52,756 nt of DNA from a virus (lineage: Duplodnaviria > Caudoviricetes), in IMG/VR virus record IMGVR_UViG_3300017766_001124, positions 1 through 52,756 of that record, one strand, 5' to 3'. The notes under the pieces were generated by a model that was not told the DNA's origin, searched no databases, and worked only from the letters and a program-made list of their open reading frames with translations. The position numbers were made by a program, and so were the translations under genes. Positions within the stretch are counted from its first letter, which is position 1; each line of letters starts with the position of its first letter. Positions 7,615-11,559 of the stretch are shown piece after piece.

Positions 7615-9157
7615 TTAACAAGCCCTCTACTTTCATGATGCGTTCACCGATCCAGCGCATGACTGGCACGGCCATTGAGTTACCTAAAGCCTTATAGCGC
7701 GGCCCGTCTGGGCAGTCCTCCGCGCCCTTCTTGCGCCACGGGATGGCCGTGAAGTTGTCGGGGAAGCCTTGCAACCGCTCGCACTCAACGGGGGTCAGAC
7801 GGCGGACAGTGGACTGTTGCTGCGCAAACAGGCTGCCGTTCGTTGCGCTTGCGTTGCCGTTCCACTTTGTGCCGTAGGCTGCGGTCAGACAGTCTGCCGT
7901 TGGCTGGAACGCTTCACTGGGCACCATGACTGCGTATCGATCCGCGCCAGTGCTGAGGGTGGGGCTTTGCTCTTCGCTCAATCCGATGGTCCGCGCCTTC
8001 GCGCCCATCTTCCAATCAAACGCCACGGCGGGCTGCTGGCCACCACCATCCCCGCCTTTACGCAGTGTCGGGCTGGCGACAGGTTGAGCAACGTAATCTC
8101 CACCCTGATTTCCGCCAACTGGGCCGCCTGCCATCAATGGTTGCGCCACCTCAGTCTCGCGGGCCTTGTAATCCTTGCCGCTGTTCATGGGCATAATTGA
8201 ATAGGCTATCGCCTGCGTAACGGGACGAGCCTCTAAAGTGTAAGCAGCATCATCATCACGAAACCCGGCTCCATCGGGGCCAGCGTTGGGGTTCTCACAA
8301 ACTGCCCGCTCTTGGATGGCATAAGTGACGTGCATATGGCTGCTTTTGCTCATCGTTGGCGCAGGCATACCATCCTCAGCCTTTGAGCGATTGGTCTTGG
8401 ATGTAATTTGCGCAAGGTCAAACGGCACGATGTGTCCCTGCTCTGCGTCCTGCACAGACCGTGATCTTCCTGTTCTAGCGCATAACGAACCAACGCTTTC
8501 ACCAACCTGCGGATTGTGTTCGGTTATATCTCCGAAGAACCCGCTACACTGGTTAGCGCCGACCGTAAGGGTGTCGGAAGTTCTTTCCCCCTTTTTTCGG
8601 CTCGGCGCAGAATGCCCTTGCAAGCTGTGGCGCTCAAAAAGAACCGCTGCGGCACTGGCTGCGTCTCCAAGACATCCGACAACGAACACACGGCGGCGCC
8701 TCTGGGCCACTCCAAAGTACTGAGCGTCAAGCACTCTGTAGGCGAACCCATACCCGAGTTCGACCAAGCCCCCGAGTATGGAACCAAAGTCCCGTCCTCC
8801 ATTTGACGACAAGACGCCGGGGACGTTCTCCCAAACCACCCATCTGGGCCGTTTTCTCTGAGCAAGTTTAAGAAACTCAAGCGCCAAGTTGCCACGGTCA
8901 TCGTCCAAGCCTCCTCTGAGGCCAGCGACTGAGAAGGATTGGCAGGGGGTTCCTCCGACAAGAAGGTCAATTGCTCCATAGTCATCTTCTCCAATAGTTG
9001 TGAAATCTCCGTGTAGCGGCACGTCAGGATAATGGTGAGATAGGACAGCGCGTGGGAACGGCTCAATCTCACTGAAGAAAGCTGCCTCCCAGCCAAGGGG
9101 ATGCCACGCAGCGGTCGCGGCCTCAATCCCAGAGCAAACGCTGCCGTACCTAATCAT
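7607..9157 (-). CDS. DNA (cytosine-5)-methyltransferase
   Basis: Motifs I SVCSGIEA, IV GGTPCQSFS, VI WENVPG, VIII QRRRRVF, IX RRLTPVECERLQGFP, X RYKALGNS; true start ATG 9157 (MIRYGSVC). Confidence 0.95.
   Translation of the reverse strand: MIRYGSVCSGIEAATAAWHPLGWEAAFFSEIEPFPRAVLSHHYPDVPLHGDFTTIGEDDYGAIDLLVGGTPCQSFSVAGLRGGLDDDRGNLALEFLKLAQRKRPRWVVWENVPGVLSSNGGRDFGSILGGLVELGYGFAYRVLDAQYFGVAQRRRRVFVVGCLGDAASAAAVLFERHSLQGHSAPSRKKGERTSDTLTVGANQCSGFFGDITEHNPQVGESVGSLCARTGRSRSVQDAEQGHIVPFDLAQITSKTNRSKAEDGMPAPTMSKSSHMHVTYAIQERAVCENPNAGPDGAGFRDDDAAYTLEARPVTQAIAYSIMPMNSGKDYKARETEVAQPLMAGGPVGGNQGGDYVAQPVASPTLRKGGDGGGQQPAVAFDWKMGAKARTIGLSEEQSPTLSTGADRYAVMVPSEAFQPTADCLTAAYGTKWNGNASATNGSLFAQQQSTVRRLTPVECERLQGFPDNFTAIPWRKKGAEDCPDGPRYKALGNSMAVPVMRWIGERIMKVEGLLND
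8524..8979 (-). CDS. Overprinted ORF, M.EcoHK31I-beta-like MTase partner polypeptide
   Basis: Alternative frame inside the MTase, own GGAG RBS; WSNSGMGSPTECLTLSTLEWP...CSLSDVLET...FFLSATACKGILRRAEKRGKELP. Confidence 0.65.
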   Translation of the reverse strand: MEQLTFLSEEPPANPSQSLASEEAWTMTVATWRLSFLNLLRENGPDGWFGRTSPASCRQMEDGTLVPYSGAWSNSGMGSPTECLTLSTLEWPRGAAVCSLSDVLETQPVPQRFFLSATACKGILRRAEKRGKELPTPLRSALTSVAGSSEI

Positions 9158-9914
9158 TGTAATTGCCCTCCAGTATCTTTTGGAAATTAGCCTTCTTGAA
9201 CACCCAGTCAAACGTGCACCCGCGCCAGCCGTTATCGCCGCGCAAGAACGGGCTCCGCTCGATGCTGTTGAACACCGCCACAAAGTCCTCAAGCTTGTAT
9301 TGGGCCATCCGAGCCTTCAGCAGTGCACGCCGCTCCGGTGTCAGGTCACGAACCTTTGGCTTGCCAAGCTTGACTGCAACCTCATTCCAGACCTCAACAA
9401 CATCCTTCGGGTCGAACGTGTCTGAAACCTCGGTTTCGGACATACACTCGTTAGAGTGTATAATATCTTGGTTAGTGGTTAGTGGTTTATGGTTAGTGGT
9501 TAGGCTTTGTTTGGGTTCCTTTTGGGTTACCTCTGGCAAAGGCTTGGGTTTTTCTGGGATGGCTTTGGTATCAGTTTCGGATGCCGACGGGTTGGCTTTG
9601 GGGCGGCCACCGCGCTTGCCGTTCTCGCGCTGTTTCTCAAGAAACTTGCGGTAATTGTCGATCTCAGCGTCGCACCGATCATGCGCCCAGCGGTCATCCT
9701 CTGCGAGGCAGAAGAAGTCTTGAAGCACCTGAGTGACCTCTTGCACATGGTCGCGCATGCCGATCTGACGAGCCACGTCGGCCTCATCGCCAAACAGCTT
9801 CCCGTCGCGCAGGTAGTAGAGATCGAGCAGCCGACGATAGGCCAGATCCTCCATCAGTGAGAGGTGGCGCGTGTGGCTGGCGTAGTCGCCAATGTTGAAT
9901 TGGAAATAGTGCAT
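9150..9914 (-). CDS. Replication initiator, YdaU/DUF1376-like
   Basis: MHYFQFNIGDYASHTRHLSLMEDLAYRRLLDLYY; NGKRGGRP; C-terminal SPFLRG...W..TFDWVFKKANFQKILEGNY. Confidence 0.85.
   Translation of the reverse strand: MHYFQFNIGDYASHTRHLSLMEDLAYRRLLDLYYLRDGKLFGDEADVARQIGMRDHVQEVTQVLQDFFCLAEDDRWAHDRCDAEIDNYRKFLEKQRENGKRGGRPKANPSASETDTKAIPEKPKPLPEVTQKEPKQSLTTNHKPLTTNQDIIHSNECMSETEVSDTFDPKDVVEVWNEVAVKLGKPKVRDLTPERRALLKARMAQYKLEDFVAVFNSIERSPFLRGDNGWRGCTFDWVFKKANFQKILEGNYND
9468..9503. repeat. Short tandem TAGTGGT-type repeats, candidate replication origin
   Basis: ttggttagtggttagtggtttatggttagtggttagg in the initiator linker, next to an AT-rich patch, as for lambdoid origins inside the initiator gene. 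Confidence 0.5.
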
Positions 9915-9916
9915 TG

Positions 9917-9967
9917 TCAGGCCTCCGCGTCTTGCACGCAAAGGGACAACTGGGTATAACTCGTCAT
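9917..9967 (-). CDS. Putative 16-aa leader peptide coupled to the replication initiator
   Basis: AGGAGG RBS, MTSYTQLSLCVQDAEA, TGA ends 2 nt before the initiator ATG. Confidence 0.45.
   Translation of the reverse strand: MTSYTQLSLCVQDAEA
9932..9960 (+). promoter_or_regulatory. Antisense sigma70 promoter
   Basis: TTGCAC-N17-TATAAC pointing against the replication operon. Confidence 0.65.
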
Positions 9968-10035
9968 ATCAATGCCTCCTCTTCAGGCGTTGTATCGGGG
10001 TGGGACCGCCGCAACTCGGTCTCACCCCCAAACCT
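9966..10035 (+). ncRNA. Putative antisense RNA with two hairpins
   Basis: CAAUGCCU-CCUCUUC-AGGCGUUG and GGGGUGGGACCG-N8-CGGUCUCACCCC; each stem pairs fully (one G-U) only on the + strand. Confidence 0.55.
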
Positions 10036-10039
10036 TAAC

Positions 10040-10357
10040 TCAAGCGTAAATCTTCCGCAAGGCCTCCGGTGAGACCTTTGACTTGGCACGCAGACCAAGG
10101 TGGTGACGCACGCTCGTGTGATCCAATTCTAGGATGTGGGCGATCGTGTACGGATCATAGTCATACCTAAAGAAAAGCAGGGCTATGAACTCCTTTCGGG
10201 CCTCCACGATGTGCTTCAATCGGCTCTTGCCGAACACCTCTTCTGCGGAAACTTTATGCTTCCTACGCACGCGATCCATGGCAGGCTTGACCCCCTTGGG
10301 CATGATCAGCCCCTTGGGCACCTTGATCGGCATGGCGAGGAACTCTTCCAAAGTCAT
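10040..10357 (-). CDS. DnaA C-terminal (domain IV)-like HTH protein
   Basis: VSAEEVFGKSRLKHIVEARKEF...IAHILELDHTSVRH. Confidence 0.75.
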   Translation of the reverse strand: MTLEEFLAMPIKVPKGLIMPKGVKPAMDRVRRKHKVSAEEVFGKSRLKHIVEARKEFIALLFFRYDYDPYTIAHILELDHTSVRHHLGLRAKSKVSPEALRKIYA

Positions 10358-10696
10358 TTACGTCTCCAAGAAGGTTAAGTGGGGATAAAGTGCCTTGAAG
10401 ATGGCCTTGCGCAGGACGTAGTCAGAGGTCTTGAACCCCTTCACGTCCTCGCACACGTTCTTATCGCCCTCAAAATACTGGAAGTCCGGCCGCATCCCAA
10501 CACGCCTGCCGTTCTCGTGCTTGATCTGCCGGCCGTCGATCTCGAAGAAGAACTGCGGCTGCACCACTAGGTGGGTGATATGACCCGCCCGCTCTAGTAG
10601 ATGCAGCTCGTTGCAGCGCTTGGCCTCCTTGATGCTGTCATGGGTGTGGCCATGCAGACAGTCAGCCTTCTTAGCCCCGTACTTATGCCTTCTCAT
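10358..10696 (-). CDS. DUF1064-type PD-(D/E)XK endonuclease
   Basis: KYGAKK...HDSIKEAKR...QPQF...PDFQY...EDVKGFKTSDYVLRK. Confidence 0.8.
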   Translation of the reverse strand: MRRHKYGAKKADCLHGHTHDSIKEAKRCNELHLLERAGHITHLVVQPQFFFEIDGRQIKHENGRRVGMRPDFQYFEGDKNVCEDVKGFKTSDYVLRKAIFKALYPHLTFLET

Positions 10697-10886
10697 TGAT
10701 CAGGTCATCCAAAGCACGGCGCACTTTGACGTAGTTCTCCAGCGTCGGAGAGGCCTTCTCATTGCGCCACAGGCTGAGAACATTCTTCCCAATCCCAGAG
10801 CGCTCAGCAATGTGCCACGCCTTGATATTGTGCATTGCAGCATCTGCATAAATCCTGCTGATGAGTAGCTTCACGTCTTCGTTCAT
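10683..10886 (-). CDS. Cro-like HTH regulator
   Basis: IAERSGIGKNVLSLWRNEKASPTL; first gene of the leftward operon; AGGAGG RBS. Confidence 0.75.
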   Translation of the reverse strand: MNEDVKLLISRIYADAAMHNIKAWHIAERSGIGKNVLSLWRNEKASPTLENYVKVRRALDDLINEKA

Positions 10887-10904
10887 AAATCCTCCTTGTC
10901 ACAG

Positions 10905-10975
10905 CGCCATATACGCGCGTTTCACCGCATTGCAATTTTTTTCTTGACTGACGTGATGATTGGATTATTTTGGCC
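10905..10975. promoter_or_regulatory. Divergent promoter region
   Basis: Leftward TTGCAA-N16-TATATG and rightward TTGACT-N16-TATTTT back to back around a T-tract. Confidence 0.55.
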
Positions 10976-11004
10976 GCCTCAAACAATCAGAACTGGAGAC
11001 CTTT

Positions 11005-11559
11005 GTGAACGTATATCAGAAGCTCAACAATGCGCGCATGATGGTGCATGCGCAGCCCCTGAAGAAGACCGGAAAGAACACCTTTGCGGGTTACGAATAC
11101 TGGGAACTTAGCGACTATCTGCCGCAGTCATTGATCGCCTGCGAAGAGGTTGGCCTGTGCCCGATCATCTCGTTCGACAATGAGATTGCAACGATGCGAT
11201 TGGTGGACGTCGATACGGGAGAGGAGATCGTGATCACCTCGCCTATGGGATCGGCTGCATTGAAGGGCTGCCATGAAGTCCAGAACATCGGCGCAGTGGA
11301 GACCTACCAGTCTCGCTACCTCTGGCAGACTGCCATGCAGATCATAGAGCGTGACGTGCTCGAAGCTACCACTGGCCGCGATGCGCCTGAGAAGAAGCTT
11401 GCGACTGATGCACAGCTTGCTGAGTTGACCACCATGATTGAGGTGACCTCCACCGACGTTGCGTCCCTCTGCCGCTTCTACAAGGTTGATGCCTTGAGCA
11501 AATTGTCCACGGATCAGGCCGCGCACGCGATTGCAGCCGTCAAGAAGAAGGTGAAGTAA
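11005..11559 (+). CDS. ERF-family ssDNA annealing protein
   Basis: GGAG RBS plus GTG; KKTGKNTFAGYEY..LSD, QNIGAVETYQSRYL. Confidence 0.85.
   Translation: MNVYQKLNNARMMVHAQPLKKTGKNTFAGYEYWELSDYLPQSLIACEEVGLCPIISFDNEIATMRLVDVDTGEEIVITSPMGSAALKGCHEVQNIGAVETYQSRYLWQTAMQIIERDVLEATTGRDAPEKKLATDAQLAELTTMIEVTSTDVASLCRFYKVDALSKLSTDQAAHAIAAVKKKVK

Follow-up and report, generated by a model that had tools for sequence, protein, structure and literature searches.

A putative control cassette in front of a phage initiator gene

The stretch of DNA analysed here, called the window throughout, is the whole IMG/VR virus record IMGVR_UViG_3300017766_001124 of a tailed phage, a linear sequence of 52,756 bases with 56% G+C that CheckV rates as 93% complete. 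On its minus strand lies a gene for a replication initiator or primosomal protein of 254 amino acids (aa), here called rep (9150..9914, ATG at 9914-9912), which was assigned by Pfam (PF07120, E 6e-23) and by PHROGs primosomal and replication-initiation families, and whose product joins a DUF1376 (YdaU-type) N-domain to an O-like or DnaD-like C-domain. The subject of this study is the segment immediately 5' of rep, 9914-10040, which most likely represents one member of an undescribed family of portable control cassettes of about 130 bases for phage initiator genes, and which probably encodes a cis-antisense RNA that would block translation of a short leader and hence of rep.

Read directly from the minus strand, the cassette carries a leader open reading frame (ORF) of 16 codons followed by TGA (9967..9917, stop codon 9919-9917), which ends 2 nucleotides (nt) before the rep ATG. 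Its Shine-Dalgarno (SD) sequence AGGAGG (9980..9975, minus strand; CCTCCT on the plus strand) lies 7 nt before the leader ATG, and a GGAGG-type leader SD is conserved in the alignments of relatives. The rep gene has an SD of its own, GGAGG, inside the last leader codons (9926..9922, minus strand), and this is retained as GGAGG or AGGGG in most relatives. On the plus strand, a promoter-like -35 element TTGCAC (9932-9937) is followed, after a spacer of 17 nt, by the -10 element TATAAC (9955-9960), which is without a T at -7. The body of the predicted antisense RNA would extend over 9967..10030 on the plus strand, its start at about 9967, opposite the leader AUG, being placed from the position of the -10 element. 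RNA folding gives two plus-strand hairpins in this segment, namely hairpin 1 (9970..9992) with 8 base pairs (bp) and a 7-nt loop, in which the anti-SD CCUCCU spans stem and loop, and the GC-rich hairpin 2 (9997..10028) with 12 bp and an 8-nt loop, which stands directly behind the stop codon of the upstream gene (10042..10040, minus strand). An earlier sequence-only reading of this DNA had described the two promoter elements with their spacer, the leader ORF with its AGGAGG, the stop 2 nt before the rep ATG and both hairpins, and all of these were found where it had placed them. A weak -10-like TAAGGT was also read on the minus strand (10037..10032). In many relatives, the interval from the upstream stop to hairpin 2 contains TGTGnTAT, a motif resembling an extended -10 element and a possible local sense promoter; in the window, the TGA corresponding to this motif is merely the stop codon of the upstream gene.

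Relatives of the cassette

Relatives were collected by rep protein, using the best 80 of 102 matches in viral contigs and the best 80 of 165 in metagenomes, and their upstream classes were read from the 150 nt before each rep ATG. Apart from the window, 34 loci from viral contigs or metagenomes have a window-type cassette in front of rep, which makes 35 cassettes in all, with the order GC-rich variable hairpin, conserved stretch around a GGAGG-type SD, short ORF and rep. A second upstream class comprises 13 loci (L002, L005, L006, L012, L013, L014, L018, L096, L100, L101, L107, L110 and L117; ORF ~230-330 nt before rep), which have a Cys-rich ORF of 77-85 aa with no Pfam match, whose stop overlaps or abuts the rep ATG. 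The first ~14 codons of this long ORF carry an antisense TTGC-N19-TA, behind the same hairpin 2, and the short leaders of the window-type cassettes may be truncated remnants of the 77-85 aa gene.

Conserved helices and strand asymmetry

The plus strand of 9962-10040 folds with -33.8 kcal/mol as compared to a shuffle mean of -18.4 (z -5.67), and none of 200 shuffles folded as well. On the mRNA strand, the fold has one internal mismatch in each stem, the single G.U pair that each hairpin has on the plus strand becoming an A.C; the sequence-only reading had correctly noticed this and had taken the plus strand to be the structured one.

For a comparison of the relatives, a raw MAFFT alignment with RNAalifold recovered only 10 pairs, the hairpin-2 stems being misaligned, and the alignment used instead was made with a covariance model built from 34 sequences with the two-hairpin structure specified by us. 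The model found 54 matches in 100 sources, and hairpin 2 is present in these 54. Among the 52 distinct matches, 84.3% of 899 cells are standard pairs as compared to 47-52% with the partners slid by 1-3 columns, where the first figure is inflated by the leaning of such an alignment towards the supplied structure and the slid controls and double changes are the fairer measures. Both sides have changed in 14 of the 19 pairs, covariation in relatives being a check that the sequence-only reading had proposed, and among 500 shuffles none attained the observed values. Hairpin 2 has such changes in six of its eight modelled pairs, and its sequence differs strongly between close relatives with the pairing kept, while in hairpin 1 covariation was seen in the modelled helices 1 and 2.

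The two strands also differ in their pairing: the antisense strand has 148 G.U cells and the mRNA strand 32 (these being A.C on the antisense strand), and standard pairs make up 84.3% and 71.4% of the cells, respectively. Folding favours the antisense strand, which gives the greater stability in 32 of the 35 cassettes, in 12 of the 13 long-ORF loci and in 22 of 24 representatives (mean -35.5 versus -30.0 kcal/mol; binomial p 3.6e-5, on rows that are not fully independent). In per-sequence folds of the relatives, hairpin 1 has 9-11 bp with several G.U pairs on the antisense strand, whereas the mRNA strand forms only a 4-bp GCCU/AGGC core. Hairpin 1 of the long-ORF class has a different sequence and the same design, its stem containing the start-codon complement and its loop the anti-SD. 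The family has conserved antisense stem-loops of the kind that belongs to systems of the R1 type, and unless an antisense RNA is made, it is hard to account for compensatory changes at those stem positions that find a partner on the antisense strand alone.

No RNA family of Rfam covers these structures. The sequence-only reading had also named an Rfam search as a check, and a cmscan of 8500-11500 against Rfam 15 at E up to 10 returned only two spurious families, with no match to CopA, PK-repZ, the c4 family or any other; five cassette loci (L001, L011, L023, L033 and L043) were likewise without an Rfam match.

A conserved promoter signature on the antisense strand

Compared with the sigma-70 consensus, the window promoter agrees in 8 of 12 positions (TTGCAC 3/6, TATAAC 5/6) and has no extended -10 element, which falls short of the near-consensus promoter that had been claimed. 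By arithmetic, about 100 chance occurrences of a bare TTG-N20-TA are expected on both strands of 52.7 kb, and taken alone the window promoter is at chance level; what raises it above a chance match is the conservation of its signature in the relatives. The antisense strand has TTG in all 35 cassettes and TTGC in 34 of them, L122 having TTGATC, which is nearer to the consensus than the TTGC form. TA at -12/-11 with a spacer of 17 nt is likewise present in 34 of 35, and L043 has TATAAT at a spacer of 18. The family consensus of the -10 element is approximately TATAAA, and a subfamily formed by L023 and its relatives reads TTGCAA-N17-TATAAT. As a candidate for a cis-antisense promoter of the kind found in R1-type systems, the family offers a TTG(C)-N19-TA signature in 34-35 of the 35 cassettes, with a weak -10 element and, in the window, no call by a promoter scan.

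For the conservation of single columns, 31 cassettes were anchored on the leader ATG alone and reduced to 21 representatives with less than 88% identity. From +5 to +46 of the leader, conservation of at least 90% is confined to the columns +12/+13 and +33 to +36, and these are the TA and the TTGC of the antisense strand at promoter-like spacing. The conserved T is the wobble base of leader codon 4, the base after it stays A though the encoded residue varies (Thr, Ile, Arg, Ser), and the Gln codon of the leader is always CAA and never CAG, indicating that the constraint is on the nucleotides and not on the peptide. Moreover, the 19-nt spacing of TA..GCAA is kept in the 13 long-ORF loci as TTGCNN-N17-TAAGAA, though the ATG is 6 nt farther from the motif there, and it was likewise read by eye in loci with other rep types. 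A sigma-54 reading of the TTGC was rejected by eye, the GG/GC spacing in the window being wrong.

The leader ORF and its position relative to rep

In 30 of the 35 cassettes, the leader ends with TGA, TAG or TAA 1-4 nt before the rep ATG, as expected of a leader ORF of the R1 type; in the other five the leader frame ends 20 nt inside rep, and in loci with other rep types the leader stop and the rep start overlap as ATGA. The leaders are 13-24 codons long and their peptide sequences vary freely. Since the stop remains beside the rep ATG while the stop codon and the peptide vary, it appears to be the translation of the leader, and not its product, that matters, and this arrangement suggests that the leader would be coupled to rep by termination and reinitiation.

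Portability and other upstream leaders

The cassette is not confined to DUF1376 genes. With its leader and antisense signature it also precedes an initiator with an HTH_36 N-domain (L296), and in six further loci (L021, L116, L121, L123, L292 and L299) it precedes an unnamed N-domain beginning MSRWFR that is joined to a window-type C-domain. Furthermore, two freshwater metagenome runs yielded contigs that agree with the window over 9861-9914, the 5' end of rep, and diverge from it exactly at 9914/9915, as would fit a joint formed by recombination between the control cassette and rep. Judged by these arrangements, the cassette is portable and has apparently been swapped between at least three initiator types. 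A weaker copy of the cassette in L298 is followed directly by an HNH-endonuclease-like ORF.

Many more distant loci belong to a third upstream class with a different structured leader, which scores as Rfam int-alpA (RF02996). This leader of ~70 nt is on the sense strand and ends ~16-25 nt before the rep ATG of other DUF1376 genes. In 32 loci scanned, 11 sense-strand matches were obtained (L049, L051, L054, L055, L056, L058, L061, L065, L066, L076 and L079), of which only that in L066 exceeded the gathering score (41.2 versus 35.8). Since int-alpA takes the same position in other DUF1376 loci and its covariance model has no match in the window, it represents an alternative leader and not that of the window, and this motif, filed as an orphan small RNA, may be a 5' leader of rep.

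Genomic neighbourhood, distribution and lifestyle

The gene directly 5' of the cassette (10040..10357, minus strand) encodes 105 aa with a weak DnaA_C-type helix-turn-helix (HTH; Pfam PF08299, E 1.2e-4, below the cut-off), and homologues of this protein lie directly 5' of the cassette in 16 of the 34 other loci. It occupies the place that cII has relative to oop and O in phage lambda. Farther upstream of rep on the same strand are a DUF1064 gene (10696..10358) and a small HTH gene (10886..10683), and from 10960 a divergent recombination operon begins (Erf, YqaJ exonuclease, NinB, SSB).

Within rep, the region of the interdomain linker (9440-9510) contains five tandem 7-nt units at 9469-9503, adjoining an AT-rich stretch and a short inverted repeat. 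This array suggests an iteron- or origin-like element and may be compared with ori-lambda, which sits inside gene O. In blastn searches, the same 39 nt of the array region matched the Pseudomonas phages MR13, MR15 and psageK9 at 97%, and these 39 nt give depth spikes in metagenome contigs.

Searches of genome contigs with the rep protein gave only four weak partial matches. A motif search of genome contigs gave at least 120 matches, and in the 80 of these loci that were scanned with the covariance model we found partial matches at the motif itself, one weak full-length match and no prophage copy. The full-length match lies on a contig of an Akkermansia metagenome-assembled genome (L193:1490-1588, plus strand; 21.2 bits, E 9e-5) and may be due to chance. 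When 9000-11000 was compared by blastn with 50,697 phage records, none matched the cassette. A search of sequencing runs gave 24, which are all freshwater or aquatic metagenomes, two of them RNA.

PHROGs was used to scan all 69 ORFs with a length of 55 aa or more, and Pfam to scan 46 of them, and at this sensitivity no match to an integrase, ParA/ParB, a protelomerase or a CI-type repressor was obtained. This agrees with the earlier statement that the phage shows no integrase. On the other hand, a missing integrase in a record that is 93% complete says nothing positive about a plasmid lifestyle, and with nothing positive pointing to it, the plasmid-like or carrier state that had been proposed from the sequence has no support. 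A role in the lytic cycle, limiting or timing Rep synthesis as templates build up, fits equally well.

Proposed mechanism and alternative explanations

The anatomy of the cassette, its conservation, the covariation of its helices, its strand asymmetry and its portability are direct observations, and together they lead us to consider the following mechanism as probable. The minus-strand mRNA would carry a GC-rich 5' or intercistronic hairpin, a strong SD and the 16-codon leader ORF, and ribosomes terminating at the leader stop 2 nt before the rep AUG would reinitiate at rep. A constitutive promoter of sigma-70 type inside the leader ORF would fire opposite to the rep operon and give rise to a small antisense RNA that starts opposite the leader AUG and folds into hairpin 1, presenting the anti-SD CCUCCU, and hairpin 2. 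By pairing with the leader of the rep mRNA, this RNA would cover the leader SD and AUG, which would stop translation of the leader and lower the synthesis of Rep. Since the dosage of the antisense RNA would rise with the number of templates, the proposed outcome is a negative feedback on initiation, resembling the copy-number control of some plasmids. Hence, of the sequence-only reading, an antisense RNA with a coupled leader in front of the initiator is supported, on the comparative evidence of the promoter signature, the covariation, the G.U bias and the proximity of leader stop and rep ATG, while its near-consensus promoter and its plasmid or carrier state are not; nor is its product of 65-75 nt, which was a guess, as hairpin 2 of the window has no U-tract behind it.

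Antisense transcription, the 3' end of the antisense RNA, the coupling and the feedback role are what we infer, and several results weigh against them. A sigma-70 consensus scan of the window did not call the TTGCAC-N17-TATAAC site, and a T at -7 is missing in the window, as it is in 28 of the 35 cassettes, being present in only six at a spacer of 17 and additionally in L043 at 18; that sigma-70 rules apply in the host is assumed here. No canonical terminator is evident, since no more than 16 of 51 members have UUU within 10 nt after hairpin 2 and the window has CCAAACCUUA at this place, without the U-tract of the intrinsic terminator that R1-type systems have. Concerning the strand asymmetry, three inherited positions in the conserved stretch supply much of the G.U excess, and since the sequences are related as well, the G.U cells are not independent events; moreover, selection for an open, A/C-rich mRNA leader would be enough to give a G/U-rich complement. 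As to the coupling, rep has its own GGAGG, which weighs on its dependence on the leader. The pairing probability of the rep SD was 0.81 in the native sequence and 0.76 with the upstream part shuffled, with one of 29 sequences significant, and RNAalifold found no family-wide mRNA-strand helix in 24 leader-to-rep segments, only an invariant 3-bp GCA/UGC without covariation. On these two results, no sequestration of the rep SD is claimed, and with the SD not occluded beyond the shuffles and no family-wide helix, it is the proximity of stop and start that speaks for a dependence of rep on leader translation. Finally, RNA-library coverage consists of one 166-nt contig (10293-10458) with nothing over 9914-10040, and being unstranded it gives no evidence either way.

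Some of these points would suit a leader that acts only in the rep mRNA and makes no functional antisense RNA. Hairpin 2 would then be an intercistronic processing or stabilising structure, the SD stem would tune the leader and the leader would couple ribosomes to rep, in keeping with the position of hairpin 2, always directly behind the stop of the same-strand upstream gene, with its wider occurrence than hairpin 1 among the covariance-model matches, and with the weak antisense -10 element and the lack of a consistent U-tract on the antisense side of hairpin 2. However, the outer 5-7 pairs of hairpin 1 exist, and covary, on the antisense strand alone, and such a leader leaves unexplained why the sole conserved bases in an otherwise free leader spell TTGC-N19-TA on the opposite strand, and why this spacing is kept when the ATG shifts by 6 nt, and we therefore regard it as unlikely. 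The conserved promoter signature could also serve transcriptional interference between convergent promoters, as with pO and pR of phage lambda, in which fewer transcripts would enter rep, and perhaps an origin within it, owing to collisions or occlusion of RNA polymerase, and the RNA itself would be secondary. The lack of a clear terminator in the window, by which transcription may run on against the operon, and the iteron-like array of five 7-nt units at 9469-9503 are in line with this, and in lambda, pO activity is reported in PMC3985674 to affect pR-driven transcription and replication, with little effect of the oop RNA level. Interference alone, however, needs neither covarying hairpins nor an antisense G.U bias nor an anti-SD in a hairpin loop, which makes it a still less likely explanation.

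That the features are fortuitous, or belong to a small plus-strand protein gene or a site acting at the DNA level, is very improbable. The promoter match alone is at chance level, as noted above, and the plus strand has an open frame of 52 aa (9914..10072), but only 8 of 22 representatives keep a frame open on the antisense strand throughout the cassette, for which reason a plus-strand protein was rejected, the compensatory changes and shuffle controls favour RNA helices, and the cassette recurs in 54 loci.

A cis-antisense RNA blocking leader translation thus remains the explanation that we favour, and a more far-reaching picture may be drawn from it, which we put forward as a speculation and consider rather doubtful as a whole. 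The cassette could be the phage counterpart of a plasmid incompatibility determinant, an antisense module moving between unrelated initiators in which the hypervariable, covarying hairpin 2 sets the specificity. An incoming phage with the same hairpin would then have its Rep translation switched off by a phage already replicating in the cell, an exclusion at the level of replication, diversification of the hairpin would be a means of escape among co-circulating freshwater phages, and the short leader would be what is left, at the 5' end, of a coupled gene once of full length, kept as housing for the antisense promoter.

Significance

Control of initiator synthesis by an antisense RNA and a leader peptide is a textbook mechanism of plasmids. 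In a full-text literature search, from which subscription journals were mostly absent, we found no paper describing such a cassette for tailed-phage initiators or for DUF1376 genes. The present cassette has no Rfam match, is found in conserved form in dozens of freshwater phages, all uncultured, and serves at least three types of initiator. If the proposed mechanism is true, an RNA would let these phages gauge how many templates they have and so restrain or time initiation, and it would offer an RNA-level route to cross-inhibition between related phages as well as a small, portable and tunable part for translation control. In addition, the orphan Rfam motif int-alpA gains a likely role as a 5' leader of rep.

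Comparison with known systems

The closest parallels to the proposed mechanism come from plasmids. In the CopA-CopT-tap-repA system of R1 and other IncFII plasmids, a short leader ORF is coupled to the initiator, its translation rather than its product being of importance, and the expected outcome is a dosage-dependent negative feedback, as we propose for the window. As far as PMC5304414 and PMC10724649 describe it, this system also has a cis-encoded stem-loop antisense RNA directed against the leader of the rep mRNA. The window cassette differs from R1 in having the antisense promoter inside the leader ORF, from where the RNA would directly mask the SD and AUG of the leader, and in lacking a U-tract terminator and a match to the CopA family of Rfam. 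Its rep, moreover, is of the DUF1376 type and belongs to a tailed phage in which no plasmid maintenance genes were found.

An activating pseudoknot is the hallmark of rep control in the I-complex plasmids. For the window family, a pseudoknot of the IncI style was not supported, as RNAalifold on the 24 segments gave only the invariant 3-bp GCA/UGC, and inspection by eye showed UUGC, which is complementary to the invariant GCAA, in some loops of hairpin 2 but not in all. The invariant GCAA of the window-type cassette hence differs from the I-complex arrangement in having no covarying partner in the variable hairpin-2 loops; moreover, the window RNA would have two hairpins instead of one and has no Rfam match. 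What is alike is the variation of loop and upper stem, the likely determinant of specificity. In ColIb-P9 (Inc RNA, repY and repZ), and in IncB and IncK plasmids (RNAI and SLI), there are further a short antisense RNA targeting a 5' stem-loop of the rep leader and a leader peptide coupled to rep, to the extent that these systems are covered by PMC10724649.

Phages themselves offer two partial parallels. In P1 and P7, the antisense-type c4 RNA blocks a small upstream ORF, icd, that is translationally coupled to the downstream gene ant. In contrast to the proposed antisense RNA, c4 arises by processing of a transcript of the same strand, and what it controls is an antirepressor instead of a replication initiator. 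In lambda, the oop RNA made from pO is a small antisense transcript against the early rightward operon, which lies directly 5' of the initiator gene and behind a small HTH-type gene, in general agreement with what PMC3985674 covers of it. However, oop targets the 3' end of the upstream cII via RNase III and has no effect on O, whereas in the window hairpin 2 ends at 10028, short of the upstream stop at 10040-10042, and the RNA would overlap the ribosome binding site of the leader and not the end of the upstream gene.

With regard to portability, the nearest comparison is REx-C of Pseudomonas plasmids, a self-contained portable unit of stem-loops, a putative antisense RNA, a leader peptide and rep expression signals that is exchanged among non-homologous initiators, as described in PMC5304414. 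Compared by description only, REx-C is larger (~175-370 nt) and is there presented as restricted to Pseudomonas plasmids, whereas the window cassette has ~130 nt and occurs in freshwater phages. Like REx-C, the window-type cassette precedes different initiators, with DUF1376, HTH_36 and a third type of rep N-domain, and the contigs break exactly at the rep ATG.

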